Virus record (IMG/VR): IMGVR_UViG_3300021344_000001
Coordinates: 1-49,744 of that record
Origin: a virus
Taxonomy: Duplodnaviria; Caudoviricetes
DNA length: 49,744 bases
Direction: 5' to 3' (one strand)
Positions within the stretch are counted from its first letter, which is position 1. Each line of letters starts with the position of its first letter. The position numbers and the translations under genes were made by a program. Shown here piece by piece: positions 2,959 through 45,306 of this stretch. Under the pieces are notes generated by a model, which saw nothing but the letters and a program-made list of their open reading frames with translations, was not told where the DNA came from and searched no databases.

Positions 2959-3576
2959 ATGAAACTCTATGAAGTAACCCAAGAGCACTTAGACAATTTC
3001 AAGAAGAACAACATCAGTTCACTAGAACCAGTCCCGAACGTACTCACTTGGATGGACCTAGCCGTAAAGTTCAAAGAGATGCTCGAAGTTTCTACTCAGC
3101 GAGACGAGGAAGGGGTGCCCTGCTGGTACCTTAAAAAGAATCGTAAGCGCATCGACTCTAGGATCTCAGTACCCTTTCAAGTACAAACTACGAGATTCGC
3201 GTTCTATTTGTACGACCAGGAGTGTGAGAAGTACACCTTAGAAACTATGCATAAACAAATGAGTCGAAGCAGGAAGTTCCTACGTACCTCCTGCCGTGAT
3301 ATCCACTGCGTAAACCCTGACCACCTCTTCGAGAGTTTCACGGCGTACTTGCATTCCGACCCTCCTAAGGTCCCCAAGGGTTCAGCGTGTAAGATGTCGA
3401 AACTCACCGAGGAGCAGGTCATCGAGATAAGGAGCGCACCCGGCACCCTGCAAGACCTAGCCAAAATCTACGGAGTTTCCAAACCCTCGATCTCGAACAT
3501 CAAACGTGGCCTCTCTTGGAGGCACCTTCTTTCCCCCAACAATACCCAAGGAGTAACCCCATGCGACTCACGGTAA
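2959..3576 (+). CDS. HNH-type endonuclease-like protein with C-terminal HTH
   Basis: CW...SCRDIHCVNPDHL His-Me finger remnant; KLTEEQVIEIR...LAKIYGVSKPSISNIKRG..WRH tail typical of phage HNH proteins; AAGGAG RBS. Confidence 0.7.
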   Translation: MKLYEVTQEHLDNFKKNNISSLEPVPNVLTWMDLAVKFKEMLEVSTQRDEEGVPCWYLKKNRKRIDSRISVPFQVQTTRFAFYLYDQECEKYTLETMHKQMSRSRKFLRTSCRDIHCVNPDHLFESFTAYLHSDPPKVPKGSACKMSKLTEEQVIEIRSAPGTLQDLAKIYGVSKPSISNIKRGLSWRHLLSPNNTQGVTPCDSR

Positions 3577-18893: not shown

Positions 18894-19502
18894 ATGCCGT
18901 TCAAGGATAAAGACAAGACCAACGAGTGCGCCAGAAAGAACTACGCGAAACGAAGAAAACTGTACATAGAAGCTGACCCTGTAGCTTCCGCTAAGATGGA
19001 GGCTCGAAAAGCTCAACAGAAGGCTTATTACGATAAGAATCAGGAAAGACTTCTGAAACTAGGGGCCAAATGGAGAGCAGAACACGCAGGGTATTTCACT
19101 GAACAGAATCACAAGAATGGGCGGTATAGACCCTGGGAAGAGTACCTAAAGGAATGCGAAGAAAAGAATATAGCCCGCTCTAAGTACATGAAGGAATGGA
19201 ATGCTTCCGATAAAGGTCAAAGAACGCGTACAGCTAGATCCCTCAGGAAGAATTTCGATGTCTACGGCCTCACGATAGAACAGTACGAAGAGAAGTGGTT
19301 ACAGCAAGACGGTAAGTGCGAGATATGCAAGAAGGAGTGTCCAGTGTACGGTCAATACAGAATGCACATAGACCACGATCATAAGACCGGAAAAGTTAGG
19401 GGTCTTCTGTGTGCTTCTTGCAACGTAGTGCTAGGACAATCAAAAGACTCAACTGAAGTTCTTGAAAACAGCGCCGCTTATCTAAGAAAGCACGGTAACT
19501 AG
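18894..19502 (+). CDS. Endonuclease VII-family (HNH-type) free-standing endonuclease
   Basis: YGLT..Y...QDGKCEIC..HIDHDHKTGKVRGLLCASCNVVLG..KDS..L..A.AYL. Confidence 0.9.
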   Translation: MPFKDKDKTNECARKNYAKRRKLYIEADPVASAKMEARKAQQKAYYDKNQERLLKLGAKWRAEHAGYFTEQNHKNGRYRPWEEYLKECEEKNIARSKYMKEWNASDKGQRTRTARSLRKNFDVYGLTIEQYEEKWLQQDGKCEICKKECPVYGQYRMHIDHDHKTGKVRGLLCASCNVVLGQSKDSTEVLENSAAYLRKHGN

Positions 19503-33070: not shown

Positions 33071-33324
33071 CCGCTGCTGAAATACAAAAAGAGCTTGCCC
33101 TACATGACGAAGCTCTTTTCGGTATTTGGATTTCAGCGTCTCAACGAAGTATGGGTGTTGTAGAAAAGACGAACACAATTCTGAAACGACTGACATTTAT
33201 TGAGAAGTTGATGAAGGTCCTAGCGGTTATTTCGTTTCTTCCTCTTCTAAGGAGTGTTGGGATACCCACGGAGTATATCGTTCCCTTCGTCTTGAAAACA
33301 GTCCTTCATCTCTCTTTCCCATAA
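33067..33324 (+). CDS. Small membrane protein
   Basis: ATGA coupling at 33067; C-terminal hydrophobic segments. Confidence 0.55.
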   Translation: MTAAEIQKELALHDEALFGIWISASQRSMGVVEKTNTILKRLTFIEKLMKVLAVISFLPLLRSVGIPTEYIVPFVLKTVLHLSFP

Positions 33325-33622
33325 ACAGTTCGATATATTCTTTAATGCCTTCAGGAGCACACGATGTAAGAGCATGTCCTCCTGCGTAGTAAACGTCCAT
33401 ACAGAATTTCGATTGAGCTGCACTCCTACCGTAATCCTCCCTCTTGTATGCCTCGACGCTCTTCACTTCTATTGACAAGAACTTCCCCTGATAGCAGCAG
33501 ATTATGTCTGCGACCCCTGCCCGACTGTGAGGCCCGGCAGGGACAGAGAAGTAGAAGAGATTAGGTGCTAGGGTGTCGAGGTAAGCTTTAATCTTCTTTT
33601 TTATTAAGTTCTCTGGAGTCAT
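33227..33622 (-). CDS. VRR-NUC domain nuclease
   Basis: E..IKKKI..YL, GVADII, FLSIEVK, SAAQ..F...GG. Confidence 0.85.
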   Translation of the reverse strand: MTPENLIKKKIKAYLDTLAPNLFYFSVPAGPHSRAGVADIICCYQGKFLSIEVKSVEAYKREDYGRSAAQSKFCMDVYYAGGHALTSCAPEGIKEYIELFMGKRDEGLFSRRRERYTPWVSQHSLEEEETK

Positions 33623-35137: not shown

Positions 35138-35952
35138 TATGTTTCCTCTTCCCTTACAGGGAATTCTTTTTGTATTGAGAGCGATTCAAGTCTCTCCTGG
35201 CTTACGAACCCATGCTCCCATTCTTCGTTACAGAGCGGTCGTTGCAAGCACCCTGTGCATGTCCCGATACCGAAACCCATTCTCCCTGTCCGGTACCACA
35301 CCTTCCGTGCTTTAGCGTCTACTAGGGACATGATACCTTCTTCGAGGTCCCTCCATGTCCCTGCCTTTTGCAGAGGATTTAACGAGTAAGGAACGGTGAA
35401 GTAGCTGTCTTGCGCGGACCATGCAGGGCTACGAGGGCGAGGTACGCCGATGCGCTCTGATCGGACGTACTCGAACTCAAATTCGACAGTGTAGCCGGGG
35501 TTCAGAGCCTCTAGGACGACGATGTAGAACCGCGCCTGGTCGCTGATATGAATGTCCATCGGAGGACGCTTACCGAACGTCTTCCAGTCCCGGCAGACGA
35601 GCGTCGTGTTGTCCTTTTCATACACGAGGTCAGGGGTGACTCGAAACTCTACGCCGGGGAGGATCTCGTAGTAGAAGGACTCCTCAACGTGCTTGATGTT
35701 AGACGGGACTCCTCTAGCTTGGATGTAATCAGAGGCGATATTAAACATTTCGTTGTTACTGTCGCTATCTACGGTTGCAAGGTCGAAACCCTTTGCCGCC
35801 TGTTCCATGTACGAATGGAAGGTACTGCCTCGTTTGATTGCCTCGTTCTCGTGGTTTGATTGACGTTTCCAGTCGTATTCAATTTCGTAGCTCTTGGGAC
35901 AGTTCTTGAACGCGGCTAGTGCGCTGTAAGAAATAACGAGTTTCTCGCTCAT
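35137..35952 (-). CDS. PD-(D/E)XK (Cas4/RecB-like) exonuclease
   Basis: SYS....FKNCP, RG.TFH, PDLV, RDWKT, Q..FY, C-terminal CTGC..RPLC Fe-S ligands. Confidence 0.85.
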   Translation of the reverse strand: MSEKLVISYSALAAFKNCPKSYEIEYDWKRQSNHENEAIKRGSTFHSYMEQAAKGFDLATVDSDSNNEMFNIASDYIQARGVPSNIKHVEESFYYEILPGVEFRVTPDLVYEKDNTTLVCRDWKTFGKRPPMDIHISDQARFYIVVLEALNPGYTVEFEFEYVRSERIGVPRPRSPAWSAQDSYFTVPYSLNPLQKAGTWRDLEEGIMSLVDAKARKVWYRTGRMGFGIGTCTGCLQRPLCNEEWEHGFVSQERLESLSIQKEFPVREEET

Positions 35953-36815
35953 AACAGTACGAATCCTTGGTTTTTACCATAACGAGGGGAGTGCCATTTA
36001 TCTAACAGTATATCGTTCTTCATAGCCGCTAGCCCTTTCTCCGGGTCGTAAACCTTAAACCAGTTGCTTCCTTGAGACTCGATTAGTACAATCCAATGAC
36101 CGTCCTCGTCCCCCGGTTCTCCTACTGTGATGTCAATGATCGAATTAGGACTAATTTGTGTGCTGGTTTTTTCGTACGGTATCTTCCTGGCCCTCAGTAA
36201 GTCCTCAATGGACTCGGGACTCGTGCCGTAATCTTCGTCTGTGTCAAGTGCTTCCTCAAGGTCATATACGAGATAACTCGTCCCCATTCTCTCTAGCAGG
36301 TAAGCCAGAGCCACTGGTCCGCAGTTGTATTCCTTGTCTTGAGTAAGGAACTGGGTGTAGAAGTGAGCGATTCGATCAGTGCCAAACCATTTCTCATGGA
36401 TGCCCTTGCTATGAAAAATAGCTCCCTGATTCTGACGAAGATGTTTCATAGCCGGTGTCGTAGCGTGGCCGACGAGCTTCACATAGCCTTGGTCGGATAC
36501 GTGCCTCGCGAACGCCTCGATGAGCTGCTTACCATACCCCTTACCTTGGTACTCAGGTAAGACGGTTGTGCTATACACGTAAATGGATTCATCATCTTCC
36601 GGTGAGCAGTCCTCGGGAGTCTCGTCTATGAACTCCAGAGCAGACGGAGTAGCGCCGTAGCACTCACCGATCAGACCGTAAGGCCCGTACATATAGACAA
36701 CGAGGCCGGACTCTATGATATCTTTCCGCTCTTCGGGGTCAATACGAAGCTCTTCTTCGTAGCAATCCTCGAACGCCATAGTTGGATTGTATTCAGTCTT
36801 AAACTGGGTACTCAT
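35949..36815 (-). CDS. GNAT acetyltransferase - C39 cysteine peptidase fusion
   Basis: VLPEYQGKGYGKQL acetyl-CoA motif; QDKEYNCGPVAL, GTSP, GHWIVL, VYDPEKG (Q/C/H/D catalytic set). Confidence 0.8.
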   Translation of the reverse strand: MSTQFKTEYNPTMAFEDCYEEELRIDPEERKDIIESGLVVYMYGPYGLIGECYGATPSALEFIDETPEDCSPEDDESIYVYSTTVLPEYQGKGYGKQLIEAFARHVSDQGYVKLVGHATTPAMKHLRQNQGAIFHSKGIHEKWFGTDRIAHFYTQFLTQDKEYNCGPVALAYLLERMGTSYLVYDLEEALDTDEDYGTSPESIEDLLRARKIPYEKTSTQISPNSIIDITVGEPGDEDGHWIVLIESQGSNWFKVYDPEKGLAAMKNDILLDKWHSPRYGKNQGFVLL

Positions 36816-37194
36816 TCCTAAAATACACTTTCTTGATGTTGTTTGCGAGTAGCATTGATTCACAATTCTCGCAAGGTTTGTGAGTAACGTAGGCTGATAG
36901 AAATTTCGTGTAATTTCCGATATACATCAAAGCGTTTATCTCAGCATGTACCGTTCGGTTACAGTGGCCTTGAAACACCGAACATCCTTCGTCGTAGCAG
37001 TGCGTCTTACCTGCGGCTGCTCCGTTATACCCTGTCGATACAATTCGGTTGCTTTGGGTGATAACGCACCCGACCTGAAGCCGGGGGCACGTAGAACGCC
37101 TTGAGACGGTTTCTGCTATGTCTAGGAAGTAGTCTGTCCAGTCTAGGCGCTGTTCAAAGACCCCAAGCGGCCAGGGAGTGTGTGAAATTTCCAT
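36799..37194 (-). CDS. dCMP deaminase
   Basis: RSTC.RLQVGCVI, TGYNG, VHAEINAL, THKPCENC. Confidence 0.9.
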   Translation of the reverse strand: MEISHTPWPLGVFEQRLDWTDYFLDIAETVSRRSTCPRLQVGCVITQSNRIVSTGYNGAAAGKTHCYDEGCSVFQGHCNRTVHAEINALMYIGNYTKFLSAYVTHKPCENCESMLLANNIKKVYFRNEYPV

Positions 37195-40554: not shown

Positions 40555-41197
40555 ATTTTTCGATAACGGTTCTCGTTATTCCCTCTCGCTGAATGTCCTC
40601 AAGCCCAAATTTCACGATACCAAACTCTTCTTCAAGTTTGAACAGGTTCAGTGCGACGAGTAGGCCGTTGGTTACGCGCAAGTCTGTTTGGTTAATGTCT
40701 CCACAAAAGACCATTCTTGAATCGCGTCCGAGACGAGTCATTGCCATTTCTATCTGTTTTGGTGTCGCGTTCTGCGCTTCGTCGATGATGATAAACTTTT
40801 CCGTAAAGGTTCTCCCGCGCATTAACTCCAGAGGCACGCACTCAATCGTATCATCAAGCCCTTCTAGGATGCTCTGCGTATTCGGCAGGTTGAGGTCTAA
40901 GATCGTTTCGTGAATAGGTGCGAGGAAGGGGCTGATCTTCTCTTCGAGGGTGCCGGGTAGAAATCCGAACTCGCGTCCTGCGGGTACCAAAGGCCGGGAT
41001 ACAATTATACCGCTAACGCGCCGAGCGAACAACTCCTCAAAGGCCACACAGACGGTAACGAAGGTCTTACCTGTACCGGCAGGACCTACCGCTAATGTGA
41101 TGCGCTTCTTTCGGATAGTGTCGCGCAAGGTGATCTGACTTCGAGTTTTGGGACACCATTCAAATGTCTCGGGCGCACTGGAGTATCTACGGGCCAT
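40526..41197 (-). CDS. phoH: PhoH-like ATPase
   Basis: GPAGTGKT, GFLPG.LEEK, MRGRT, IIDEAQN, TRLG, GDINQTD. Confidence 0.93.
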   Translation of the reverse strand: MARRYSSAPETFEWCPKTRSQITLRDTIRKKRITLAVGPAGTGKTFVTVCVAFEELFARRVSGIIVSRPLVPAGREFGFLPGTLEEKISPFLAPIHETILDLNLPNTQSILEGLDDTIECVPLELMRGRTFTEKFIIIDEAQNATPKQIEMAMTRLGRDSRMVFCGDINQTDLRVTNGLLVALNLFKLEEEFGIVKFGLEDIQREGITRTVIEKFGEYFENRL

Positions 41198-43865
41198 TCC
41201 TTTTCACCGTGCTCTCCACCATAAGTGGGACTTCAAGGATGACGTTGTACTCGTCTTTAAGAGCTTTCACTGGGTAATGACACATGACCTGTTCAATCTC
41301 CTTAATTTTGCCTTCGAGATTCTCGTCATCGTCCAGCTCAAACGAGATCGAGTCATGCACAAAAAGAACCATAGGGAATTTCAATTCCTGTAGTCGCTTC
41401 ATTGCTAAAAAGGCAATGTGCGCTGCAAGATTCTGTACTGGGACGTTGACGGCTTGACGTAGCTTCCCAAAGAACTTATGGCCATAATTCTGCCGAATAA
41501 GCTCTGGGTCCCCAAAGTGCCTAACGAAGCCAGTCGGGCATGCAATTTGCCCTGTTTGTAGTATCTCTGATTTTCGCTCATTGTAGTACCTTTCAAATCC
41601 TGGGAAAGTGTTGTGCCATTCTTCATGAACTTTTTCGCATAGGTAAAGATTGAGTTCTACTCCCTGTTTCTTTGCATACTCGTATAACGTGAACCCGTTA
41701 CCACAGTAAATTTGAGAAAAATTACAACTTTTGGCTATTTGTCGGTTATAACCCCATAAATTTTTTTCGGTGTATCTGATAGGTGATGTATTTGATGACA
41801 GCGCCGACAAAGCGTCTGAAGATTTGAATCCATGTTGTTTTTCCGATTGTGGTCTTTGTGATGAACAAGCAGATTCGATAAAGTACCGTGCTTGTATTTG
41901 GGATTGTTTGACTTCGTAAAGGTTTCCGAAATTCCGCAATTCTCGCAATTCTTCTTCCGAGAACGCTTGTACACATTTGTCCCATCTTTGTAGCAATGGT
42001 GTTCTTTTCCCTGTGAGTGAGGATAGTTTCCACTCCCCATCCCAACCCTCCCTTTGTACGTGCTCAAGTATCTCTCGCGCTTCATCCTCTTCTCGTATGC
42101 ACGAGAACAGGGAGGACAGAATTTTTGCGCCGACCCAGTTGGTTGGCAAACCGCATAACATAGCCCACAGGTCAACGGATTTAATTGCCTCATTTTTGAA
42201 GAATACTCCTGCAAAATACATATGGGGGTCCCATGACGGATTTTCTTTGAATCTAGATAAGATGCTACGTTCTCCAGCAAGCCTTGAGGCTATCCGAAAT
42301 TCGATAGCATTGTAATCAACTGAAACGAGTACTTTACCTTTAGGAGCACAGAAAAACCCTTTCAATTCACGATCTAGGTTCTGCACGTTGGGTTTGGTTG
42401 CAGAAGTGCGGCCAGTCTCTACAGAGACCATCTTGTACTCGGGGTGAGCCTTCCCGTCCCCCTCCTGGGAGAGCTTCTCGTACGGCTTGACGTAGGTCGA
42501 TAATACCTTCGCCTGCTCTCGGTATTCTAGGAGGTTCTTCACGAATGGAATGTGTTTGTAGTCCTGCAGCACGTCCTTCGACGTCACGGGGTGGCCCTTG
42601 TCTGTGGTCGGCAGAACGCAGTGAAGAGTATTCAGACATTGGGCTATTTGCAGGGTCGAGTTTGGGTTAATTTTCTTCTGGTCAATGTCATGTATGAGCG
42701 TCTGCATCATTCGACGGACCGTTAGCTCTTTTTCCGCAAGAGCCAGAGATACCCTCTTCTTAGTATCAAGGATGTACGCGCTATCAAGACAAACCCCTCG
42801 GCTAGACATGTCATCAAGAATTCTTCTGGTCGGGTGTATGAGGTTTTCGATGAGGTAGTACCGTTTATCTTTAGATAACTCTTTCCTGAACAGCAGGAAT
42901 AACTGCATGGTATACCATGTATCCCTGGCGTTGTAGAAATAAAATTCTTCTGATCCGAGTTTAGCATTGAATGCTTCTTTCCACCCCGGAACTCCGAGGT
43001 ATTTTACTGCTAAAGCTTCCAGCCCCCTAGGCTGAGTCTCATCCATGAAAAACGCCATATACATGGTATCGTGATGATCTGTAACTCCAAGACCGAACTT
43101 CCGAAGCATGGGGCCATCGTAATGAAAAGCATTGTGCCCCACATTATTTCTCCCGACGAGCGTACCTCCCAAATTGGATACGTCTCTGCTAACGAAACAC
43201 ATTTCTTCATTAGCCACGGCAATTTGTGTTGGGTAATCCGTGAATTCTCCATCTTCGTCGATCGCTTCGATATCGTAGGCAAGTAAATGACCATCTATTT
43301 TTTCTCCTTCCCACATTTTCCATGGAACATTTGTATCCGTTGATTGTTTGACGCACCGTCTCATATCAGAAACTACTGTACGCTCTAAGTTACTGTTCTG
43401 TGCTAAGTATTCTATGCTGTAGGTACAGAATACCTTTGCGTCTGTGTTCAGTTCAGGTATAGTTTGAAGCTCAGATCCCCGATTGTTCCGTACGCCCGAT
43501 CTTTTCGTGACAGAGCGTAGCGCGACATCCCCAAGACAGAGAATGTACCGAGGTCTACAACGATCAATCTCTTCCTTGAGATAACTGCGACACGCCTCGA
43601 TTGAAACGAGAGGCAGTGTTTGACCACGGCCATGTAGCGCACACTTGACTGCGTACACAACATTAAATTCGTCGGTATGGAGGTTAGCCTTTTGGATACA
43701 ACTTCGCAAAAGATTCCCCAACGGACCTGAGAACGGTTCACCTTCAAAGTCCGCTTTACTGTCCGGTTGATCACATACGATAAGAACTTCACACTTTTTC
43801 ACTTCCGTTTTGAGTACAGGAGAGAGGCACTGCTGAGACAGCGAACAGAGATTGCACGTATTCAT
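41187..43865 (-). CDS. polA: Family A DNA polymerase with N-terminal UDG-family-4-like domain and 3'-5' exonuclease; ~137-codon insertion
   Basis: Likely start 43865 (MNTCNLC); YDIE/HN..YD/YN..D exo motifs; TGRTS..PNVQN; DYNAIE (A), R..AK..NF..IY (B), VHDSI (C). Confidence 0.9.
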   Translation of the reverse strand: MNTCNLCSLSQQCLSPVLKTEVKKCEVLIVCDQPDSKADFEGEPFSGPLGNLLRSCIQKANLHTDEFNVVYAVKCALHGRGQTLPLVSIEACRSYLKEEIDRCRPRYILCLGDVALRSVTKRSGVRNNRGSELQTIPELNTDAKVFCTYSIEYLAQNSNLERTVVSDMRRCVKQSTDTNVPWKMWEGEKIDGHLLAYDIEAIDEDGEFTDYPTQIAVANEEMCFVSRDVSNLGGTLVGRNNVGHNAFHYDGPMLRKFGLGVTDHHDTMYMAFFMDETQPRGLEALAVKYLGVPGWKEAFNAKLGSEEFYFYNARDTWYTMQLFLLFRKELSKDKRYYLIENLIHPTRRILDDMSSRGVCLDSAYILDTKKRVSLALAEKELTVRRMMQTLIHDIDQKKINPNSTLQIAQCLNTLHCVLPTTDKGHPVTSKDVLQDYKHIPFVKNLLEYREQAKVLSTYVKPYEKLSQEGDGKAHPEYKMVSVETGRTSATKPNVQNLDRELKGFFCAPKGKVLVSVDYNAIEFRIASRLAGERSILSRFKENPSWDPHMYFAGVFFKNEAIKSVDLWAMLCGLPTNWVGAKILSSLFSCIREEDEAREILEHVQREGWDGEWKLSSLTGKRTPLLQRWDKCVQAFSEEELRELRNFGNLYEVKQSQIQARYFIESACSSQRPQSEKQHGFKSSDALSALSSNTSPIRYTEKNLWGYNRQIAKSCNFSQIYCGNGFTLYEYAKKQGVELNLYLCEKVHEEWHNTFPGFERYYNERKSEILQTGQIACPTGFVRHFGDPELIRQNYGHKFFGKLRQAVNVPVQNLAAHIAFLAMKRLQELKFPMVLFVHDSISFELDDDENLEGKIKEIEQVMCHYPVKALKDEYNVILEVPLMVESTVKRNGP
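41735..42193 (-). mobile_element. HNH homing endonuclease nested out of frame in polA
   Basis: CGLC..QKFC..C zinc finger; CENCG...LLVHHKDHNRKNN..SNLQTLCRRCH..HH; AGGAG upstream of ATG 42193. Confidence 0.85.
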
Positions 43866-43948
43866 TTTAGACAGGATATCAAAAGCATTCCTGTGATGAA
43901 GAGCCATGCAGAGCCAATTAACATGCCTATCAGTACTCCCCAGTTCAT
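43862..43948 (-). CDS. 28-aa single-TM peptide
   Basis: MNWGVLIGMLIGSAWLFITGMLLISCLK; TAATG with helicase stop and ATGA with polA start. Confidence 0.55.
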   Translation of the reverse strand: MNWGVLIGMLIGSAWLFITGMLLISCLK

Positions 43949-45306
43949 TAAATTCCCCCCAAAAGTATATCTTCAAGTTTTTGATTCTGTATAGTTTCTC
44001 CGACATTTTTCTTGAGTTCTAAAGTCTTCGCGATGTACATGTCAATGGTATTGGGTACGCGGTAGTAAGTCACGCACTTGTTTTTGCCTGGTGAGTAGAT
44101 TCTATCAGTCGCCTGCGTCTGCTCTGCATAGCTGAAGGTTTCCGAGGCGAAGAGCGCATGCGTGGCCCCTTCCAGAGATATTCCAGTGGACGCCGCTTGT
44201 ATCTGAGCAATACAGACAACGGGCTCTTTTGAAGTGTTCACCAGGAGAATGGCTTCTTGTCTCTTCGGGATAGGGGTAGAGCCTTGTATCACAACTACTT
44301 TGCATTTAAGTCTATCCTTAACTTCACGTTCATACGTTTCTACTTCCCAAGTATACTTGCAAAAGATCACAGCCTTCTCTCCTGATTCTACGATCTCTTC
44401 AAGATCCTCACATACTGCGTCAATCTTCGCAGTGTGGACATCTTGCAATCCATTCTCCGTGTTCACAAACCCGGAGGTGATCTGTTGAAAGCGTAGGAAG
44501 CGCGTCAAGCCATGTGTCCCATTGACAGTTTGTCCATTCAACTCCACTATCCATTCTTGTGCCAACTTTCTGTAAAGCGTCATAATTTTCGGCGGTAGGA
44601 ACACCTTACGTTCTACAAATTGGTACTGATCTCCCCCAAACACTTCCTCACGTTTTACAATCGTCGCCCACTTCTTGAGCTTGGCCTCCAGCTCAAGCAG
44701 GTTCCGGTATCCCAGGACTTTGCTCCGGTACATCTGGTCACAGATAAGGTGTCGGTGCTCGAACTTTTGGAAGGACGAGAACCAGTCCCCCTCGTCGAAG
44801 GGCATCATTTGCCCCCACAGGTTAGCGTAATTGTTCAGGGTAGGAGTGCCGGTGAGAATGCGGACATACCGCGCCCGCTTCGCCATCTTGCGGTAGGCCT
44901 TGCCCCTGGCTGAGGAGACGCTTTTGAACCGATGGCTCTCATCCGCGATTAAAGCCTCTACAGTGAGCTTAGGCATTGCTTTGAGTATCTCGGCAAGGCG
45001 GTTGTCGTTGATGACCATCCATCGGTCAGGAAATGCCCTTAAAAGGCGAACTGTGTTTTTGATCGTCCCCGAGAACCCGTCTATCACCGTTATGCCTTGG
45101 CTACGCGCCTCCTCAATCCAGAATGGGCAGACTGTCTTAGGAGCGGTGATGAGGCACGAAGACGGCCTCCAGGCCTTCAGGTACTCAATCGCCATGCGCG
45201 TTTTCCCAAGACGGGGGGCCGCGAAGATGGCCCTCTTAGGAGAGCCTAAGTGTTTTGTTAGCTCTTCCTGTTGCCAGGGGCGTAGGTTAGTCATCGTTTC
45301 CTCCAT
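43948..45306 (-). CDS. SNF2-like superfamily 2 helicase
   Basis: LRPWQ, PRLGKT, IADESH, LTGTP, GISL, Q..DRI. Confidence 0.88.
   Translation of the reverse strand: MEETMTNLRPWQQEELTKHLGSPKRAIFAAPRLGKTRMAIEYLKAWRPSSCLITAPKTVCPFWIEEARSQGITVIDGFSGTIKNTVRLLRAFPDRWMVINDNRLAEILKAMPKLTVEALIADESHRFKSVSSARGKAYRKMAKRARYVRILTGTPTLNNYANLWGQMMPFDEGDWFSSFQKFEHRHLICDQMYRSKVLGYRNLLELEAKLKKWATIVKREEVFGGDQYQFVERKVFLPPKIMTLYRKLAQEWIVELNGQTVNGTHGLTRFLRFQQITSGFVNTENGLQDVHTAKIDAVCEDLEEIVESGEKAVIFCKYTWEVETYEREVKDRLKCKVVVIQGSTPIPKRQEAILLVNTSKEPVVCIAQIQAASTGISLEGATHALFASETFSYAEQTQATDRIYSPGKNKCVTYYRVPNTIDMYIAKTLELKKNVGETIQNQKLEDILLGGI

Follow-up and report, generated by a model that had tools for sequence, protein, structure and literature searches.

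An HNH endonuclease gene nested out of frame in a phage DNA polymerase gene that stays open

How can a phage DNA polymerase carry a large insertion immediately ahead of motif B when the same DNA encodes, in another frame, an endonuclease? The question is raised by the polA gene of a Caudoviricetes virus record (IMG/VR IMGVR_UViG_3300021344_000001), the whole 49,744 nucleotides (nt) of which were analyzed and are called the window here. A first-pass annotation of this DNA had proposed that the insertion is neutralized by dual coding with a tolerated insert, by ribosomal bypass or by unusual splicing. The evidence below favors the first of these: the locus is probably an intron-less homing HNH endonuclease gene nested one base off-frame in the part of polA that encodes the fingers region, with the polymerase translated straight through and about 140 extra residues kept. 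The features concerned are the following.

41187..44006, minus strand: UDG-exonuclease-PolA gene, 939 codons in a single open frame that encodes UDG, 3'-5' exonuclease and PolA domains
41745..42221, minus strand: element-specific tract from DPH to the motif-B Arg, 477 nt in place of the 57 nt of the empty allele
41735..42193, minus strand: nested HNH endonuclease gene in the +1 frame, 152 amino acids, ATG at 42193, TAG at 41737-41735
42206..42210, minus strand: Shine-Dalgarno-like AGGAG, 12 nt 5' of the HNH ATG, within the polymerase codons Ala-Gly-Val
41735..41737, minus strand: HNH stop codon TAG, formed by the motif-B codons for Ile-Ala (RQIAK) and not part of the inserted tract
41754..41756, minus strand: Trp codon four residues ahead of the motif-B Arg, invariant in 7/7 inserts
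41700..41744, minus strand: PolA motif B (O helix), intact, two residues differing from the empty allele (A>C, L>I)

From the Asp of DPH (42230) to the motif-B Arg (41744), the PolA of the window measures 162 residues, against 22 in the insert-free allele P0013, whose protein is 93% identical, and in most relatives; across the insert-free rows of the alignment the span is 20-46 residues. The net gain of 140 codons bears out the large insertion described earlier. It was not a clean insertion between codons, as 57 nt were replaced by 477 nt and the HNH stop sits in motif B. An assembly artefact is excluded by contigs from five other studies (X2, X3, X4, X5, and X8), which cover stretches of the insert and show no indels; those of X3, X4, X5, and X8 are pieces of 151-232 nt at a depth of 2-4.

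The complete 152-residue zinc-finger/HNH protein with its own ATG that had been read from this tract is a real open reading frame (ORF), matching the HNH family PHROG 25862 with an E value of 4.5e-11, although its ATG lies at 42193 and not at 42194. Its match to the Pfam HNH domain is weak (E 0.0066, under the cut-off). The protein contains three CxxC pairs, HHKDHNRKNN, and NLQTLCRRCHQIHH, and the pattern HHKDHNRKNN...N.L..LC..CH...H, a beta-beta-alpha-metal motif comprising the catalytic His and the metal ligands, is kept in 11/11 aligned proteins. The protein search returned no close record of it, full-length matches being 30-37% identical, and no solved structure matching the HNH alignment was found. 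The AGGAG, which is not in the empty allele (Ala-Ala-Phe codons there), presumably serves as the ribosome-binding site of the HNH gene. No significant hairpin was detected over this site (z -0.8), nor any excess of promoter-like sites (1 versus 1.3 expected). The Trp ahead of motif B is also seen in the HNH-free long loop of another phage polymerase (P0033).

What, then, keeps the polymerase readable through this tract? The polymerase frame is kept open by selection, because T is never used where it would close that frame, unlike elsewhere in the HNH gene. The absence of stops across the insert, already recorded in the first-pass annotation, has a probability of 1.4e-4 by chance given the base composition, and of 20,000 synonymous recodings of the HNH none kept the polymerase frame open (mean 10.3 stops). 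At-risk sites were defined as HNH-silent positions at which T would make a polymerase stop. In the window, T occurs at 0/30 of these and at 44/90 positions elsewhere (p=1e-7), and in the related locus L168, described below, at 0/28 and 24/70, respectively (p=1.4e-4). As controls, five other genes or gene parts of the window use T at 30/126, 13/46, 26/87, 39/131, and 45/139 at-risk sites (24-32%), and three intron HNHs at 11/43, 24/33, and 24/47. None of 46 distinct full-length, non-nested relatives has the equivalent frame open (2-32 stops, median 14-15). Among 85 loci with HNH relatives, this frame is open in one (L003), and the other overlapping frame is open by chance over the HNH match in four.

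The insert is not confined to the window. Six further PolA lineages carry it at the same place (P0032, P0106, P0107, P0108, L167, which is P0112, and L168, which is P0113), and the C-terminal parts of the seven carrier lineages share only 23-41% identity. When 1.84 billion proteins were searched with a profile made from the polymerase-frame insert, P0106, P0107, and P0108 appeared in addition to P0032, the two-frame DNA pattern gave L167 and L168, and P0111 was added by a later search. Among the four metagenome matches of the DNA pattern, L170 was rejected as a chance match in a cytochrome gene, and L171 is the window itself. Scans of viral contigs gave no relatives, whether made with just the HNH, with the polymerase domain or with alignments of the insert, and neither did GTDB genomes searched with the dual-frame pattern. 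In the window, L167, and L168 the nested HNH could be read directly in DNA. For the four carriers available as proteins only, the +1 frame can encode 16-18 of the 18 conserved HNH residues, compared with at most 8 in 300 shuffles of each.

The two further loci read in DNA differ in the state of their endonuclease. In L168 the HNH is intact, with GAGG 5' of its ATG. The polA of L168 (41-1165, 2547-3653) has a second, upstream interruption close to the GRLSS motif: about 1.3 kb that contain an unrelated ORF (1756-2250) and in which Rfam detects no intron. In L167 the HNH is broken by a premature TGA, carries HHRGRG instead of HHxDH and has lost the conserved Asp/His, and the polymerase frame nevertheless stays open through 841 codons. 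At the broken site, the L167 codons give in the polymerase frame the residues found in the proteins P0111 and P0118. The pattern fits decay of the HNH after insertion rather than an ancestral polymerase domain, since near-identical alleles without any insert exist; the evidence for decay is one assembly, seen twice (L169 duplicates L167). An insert in a homologue lacking the HNH frame, which the earlier annotation had counted as a sign of a polymerase domain of its own, is thus approached in L167, where the HNH is broken and the insert in frame, but the alleles without insert argue for decay.

Does the element move? Over the 889 nt of 41336-42224, 2 differences separate the phage in run X2 from the window, against 52/514 nt in the flank 40800-41313 and 55/592 nt in the flank 42331-42922 (9-10%), and a single X2 contig crosses the upstream transition in identity. 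Co-conversion of flanks is a recognized mark of homing (PMC2988022, in the part available), and the X2 tract was likely produced by homing with co-conversion. Occupied and empty alleles occur among close relatives, a patchy spread. The empty allele is present in runs X8 and X9, diverging directly after DPH (at 42222; loose ends read by hand), and X8 contains both alleles, with a 151-nt piece of the occupied one. L172 is an empty allele of L167 with 98% identical DNA. Between P0111 and P0118, 147/149 insert residues are identical, and the flanks are 74% and 78% identical.

The origin of the element can be approached through its relatives. The closest annotated HNHs interrupt polA in phages 4HA13, BSBP01, Acinetobacter KEN_01, and Av-05, where the polymerase frame contains stops and Rfam reports group I matches; of five polA-borne relatives run in Rfam, four loci match group I with E values of 2.5e-9 to 4.5e-3, under the gathering score. 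Pieces of polA were found on both sides at 40/74 distinct relative loci, with the break mostly at motif B. A J8/7-like motif (ATAGTC/ACAGTC) lies 3' of the HNH in 43/46 distinct full-length relatives (chance about one in five by our own estimate) and in none of the nested copies. The nested HNHs are 35-42% identical to the intron-borne family, and each matches another nested HNH best (43-45%, by margins of 1-5 points). It appears that an intron endonuclease of this HNH family lost or left its ribozyme and then settled just upstream of the usual motif-B site.

Several of these relatives deserve separate mention. L014, L015, L029, L033, L044, L050, and similar loci are probable group I introns located directly after NFG in motif B of polA; in them the core is mostly 5' of the HNH, with only 45-75 nt after it, and the HNH of L014 is in frame with the upstream polymerase exon. 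Relatives embedded in polA without a strict P7 motif were considered as intron-less splits, but those viewed resemble group I introns with a variant motif. In Escherichia phage Av-05 (L005), the annotation divides polA into three pieces and lists three HNH-like genes; Rfam gives three group I matches there, and the interruptions are likely unannotated introns. Finally, the terminase large subunit gene of Synechococcus phage S-EIVl (L003:1390-3930) also has a related HNH, which its record does not annotate. This HNH is encoded in the +1 frame within an apparent intein that, read by eye, starts with C-L-V-G and finishes with H-N-F...N-C.

Could the polymerase fold around the insert? The insertion site aligns to the Klenow loop ahead of the O helix, and in other phages the same site accepts loops of 34-46 residues without HNH (P0033, P0054, and P0055). 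AlphaFold2 was applied to the polymerase domain with 89 sequences, 7 of them with the insert. The model had a mean predicted local distance difference test score (pLDDT) of 87 and a predicted template-modeling score (pTM) of 0.84, with the core intact and mostly at 90 or above; its best Foldseek matches were Klenow, Bst, and Taq (template-modeling scores of 0.49-0.59 by query). The insert was modeled as about six helices, with block pLDDT of 54-89, one 22-residue stretch below 50, and an extended O helix. Modeled alone, it was again helical, with pLDDT 64 and pTM 0.61. No structural match to the insert came from the Atlas search, and the best of 48,161 chains in VIA-align reached a Z of 3.2, which does not in itself make this a new fold. 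The insert is accordingly predicted to be an extra, largely helical segment of the fingers.

Taken together, the following course can be proposed for the preferred dual-coding arrangement. Ribosomes would initiate the HNH at the internal AGGAG/ATG on the polA mRNA. In a mixed infection, the HNH would nick or cut the empty allele near DxH/motif B; repair would then copy the element plus flanking DNA, the altered flanks protecting the carrier. The full-length polymerase would retain the insert, with no splicing, and function, and the element would descend from the HNH family of the group I introns in polA motif B.

Two of the alternatives would restore a polymerase of normal length before or during translation. 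The insert might be spliced from the mRNA by an unrecognized or trans-acting reaction, a remnant of the group I lifestyle of the relatives, to which the J8/7-like motifs and the group I matches at four polA-borne loci lend some color. We regard this as very improbable. In Rfam, the window has no intron match up to an E value of 10, nor do L167 and L168 up to 5; profiles of intron 5' and 3' parts, which recover 17/21 and 18/21 held-out introns, find nothing in these three loci; and the region is no more stably folded than its shuffled versions (z -0.66). The tract is taken up by the HNH ORF, which ends past it, leaving no obvious room for a group I core, as had been noted before. Alternatively, ribosomes might take off at the 42167 TGG and land on the one at 41756. 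Both codons are real and 411 nt apart, as first described, the hop would leave a 25-residue linker, and the same pair exists in L167. In the bypass of T4 gene 60, matched take-off and landing codons are accompanied by a stop and a hairpin after take-off; here there is neither a stop after the take-off codon nor a significant hairpin. Moreover, the window has 8 matched codon pairs, the TGG pair among them, that would give a linker of 18-34 residues, L168 has no TGG pair and P0032 no 5' Trp, and the 5' TGG is a shadow of HNH Cys-Gly codons. Bypass would relax stop avoidance rather than impose it, and because neither bypass nor splicing needs the stop avoidance seen in the window and L168, both are disfavored; there is little chance that bypass operates here.

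Removal of the insert as protein needs the open frame just as much as retention does. The insert could be translated and then excised or cleaved, by non-Hint self-processing or by a host protease, to give a spliced or two-chain mature polymerase, and out-of-frame endonucleases in inteins do exist (L003 in terL; 10.1101/2025.01.02.630785, as far as its available text goes). We nevertheless consider such processing improbable. In agreement with the earlier reading that intein ends are missing, there is no N-terminal C/S block, the C-terminal junction is N/R, R/R or W/R without a C/S/T+1 in 7/7 inserts, and Pfam matches no intein at E<=1 in any of the seven; the all-helical model (pLDDT 64 for the insert alone) would also be unlike a beta Hint domain. 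Lastly, the frame might be open by chance, or the insert might be an old polymerase domain with an incidental HNH. The HNH-free loops of 34-46 residues at the site and the four chance-open frames among 85 loci would be compatible with this, but recoding never left the frame open, alleles identical at 93% (protein) and 98% (DNA) lack the insert, and the HNH shadow is present in 7/7 inserts, so that this explanation is scarcely credible. Dual coding with a tolerated insert, well supported by stop avoidance, by the family and by the empty alleles, is what remains of the three proposals in the first-pass annotation.

Several observations weigh against this reading. Retention of the insert and expression of the HNH are deduced from sequence. 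The insert abuts the mobile O helix, and a cost in fidelity or speed is plausible. In the GC-rich L167 the at-risk test is not significant (0/22 versus 12/92, p=0.12). Since the four protein-only carriers came out of protein searches, an open polymerase frame is a matter of ascertainment in them, and their HNH frame is deduced from compatibility. In the HNH tree, support for a single origin of the nested copies is 0.18. Both X2 variants in the insert, at 41850 (H115R) and 42015 (S60L), change the HNH, one of them at a family-invariant His; each is seen in one contig at a depth of about 4. These two variants are silent in the polymerase frame and the sole X8 variant (42161) is the reverse, all in single low-depth contigs. 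Selection on the insert residues beyond stop avoidance is only suggestive. A recoding test for conservation of the insert amino acids gave z of about 5 (0/1000), but was discounted, the alignment having been built on the real sequences. In a stricter test, third-base sharing ratios of three DNA pairs were 1.45, 1.23, and 1.08, so that one exceeds the 95th percentile (1.31) of 299 non-nested control pairs (1.04+/-0.16, maximum 1.59), one is raised below it, and one is null.

A bolder interpretation goes beyond tolerance. The HNH shadow frame may have given rise to a new subdomain, folded and helical, within an essential replicative polymerase, selected at the amino-acid level, outliving the nuclease and moving as a unit between very different phages. 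The domain would then have been born by overprinting from a ribozyme-less intron endonuclease, with the invariant Trp, extending the O helix, as an example. We put this forward tentatively, as a possibility that is rather doubtful at present.

As for the genomic setting, the 49.7-kb record is a complete phage with direct terminal repeats (exact repeat 127 nt), and all 12 runs listed as holding the phage are soil or freshwater metagenomes. No second polymerase was found among the window ORFs scanned (39 plus 9 others, in overlapping sets; 110 ORFs are listed in all), and the phage PolA may be taken as essential by inference. Its true start is likely Met48 at 43865, judging from the alignment with P0013; codons 1-47 of the ORF (44006-43865) run into the end of the helicase gene and have no counterpart in P0013. 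Three more free-standing nuclease-like genes are located at 2959-3576 (HNH-like), 18894-19502 (endonuclease VII, adjoining the head-protease/capsid gene), and 33227-33622 (endonuclease). Two paralogues near opposite ends of the genome, 11-529 and 48689-49084, have no assigned function (PHROG 5070/7964), and 35949-36863, among the replication genes, encodes a GNAT acetyltransferase fused with a C39-like peptidase domain.

How does this locus compare with known systems? Hidden out-of-frame HNH insertions were described, computationally only, in mycobacteriophage DNA methylases, namely the ShiLan domain and Pacc40 gp60 (Arsenault, Gosselin & Gogarten 2025, PMC11855218). Because this layout has already been published for a phage methylase, the novelty implied by the first-pass annotation must be lowered. 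As far as the available text of that paper describes it, ShiLan shares with the window a stop-free host frame, a zinc-finger/HNH in another frame with its own start, no detected intron or intein, a patchy distribution, and proposed retention in the host protein. The likeness is one of layout, the HNH sequences not having been directly compared; among 34 tblastn records of the HNH at E<=1e-3 there was no mycobacteriophage. The host differs, being a methylase in ShiLan, which its authors call non-essential, stressing dispensability (PMC11855218), and in the window PolA, which would be essential. The ShiLan HNH is in frame 3, starts with GTG, lacks a ribosome-binding site and stops inside the insertion, whereas that of the window is in +1, starts with ATG, has a Shine-Dalgarno-like motif in host-frame codons and takes its stop from motif B. 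The ShiLan insert is predicted to be poorly structured and that of the window mostly helical.

Group I introns in phage polA encode HNH endonucleases such as I-PfoP3I, I-HmuI, and those of the phiI/W31 introns (PMC3428280, available in part). With these introns, as in 4HA13, Av-05, and the Acinetobacter KEN motif-B loci, the window shares the HNH family, the gene, the fingers region, and inferred homing, but it has no ribozyme, lies upstream of motif B and not within it, and keeps the host frame open instead of stopped. Dual coding, an internal endonuclease start, and an open host frame are likewise seen, by what is available of the report of Gosselin et al. (10.1101/2025.01.02.630785), in inteins whose homing endonuclease is out of frame; a further listing on such inteins is 10.64898/2026.09.14.751524. 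The window lacks their Hint domain, so its shadow polypeptide could not be removed by known chemistry. In phage Aeh1, nrdA is reportedly a gene in pieces, the host gene being split into two ORFs around the endonuclease gene. Both this case and T4 gene 60 share with the window an intron-less insertion in an important phage gene, but the polA of the window remains a single ORF without an internal stop. The Aeh1 insertion is mobE, embedded in nrdA (PMC2988022, in part).

No intein-less out-of-frame HNH in a DNA polymerase was found in the literature, only the methylase and intein papers, in a search that covered few subscription journals; a classification of PolA proteins mentions neither HNH nor inteins in its available text (PMC10201439). 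What appears new here is the occurrence of a family of such elements in a polymerase that is likely essential, together with their relationship to the HNHs of introns and an insert predicted to fold. Should the enzyme prove functional with the insert in place, then even the most constrained region of an essential protein is open to homing endonucleases that bring no splicing element and need only recode themselves to harmlessness in the host frame. Nuclease genes nested in this manner evade standard annotation. The polA family would also be a tractable case of domain birth in an alternative frame. Compared with the methylase case of 2025, it supplies what was lacking, namely an easily assayed host enzyme, natural pairs of an occupied and an empty allele (the window and P0013, L167 and L172), a decayed copy, and intron-borne relatives, and the hypothesis of a tolerated insert is therefore directly testable.

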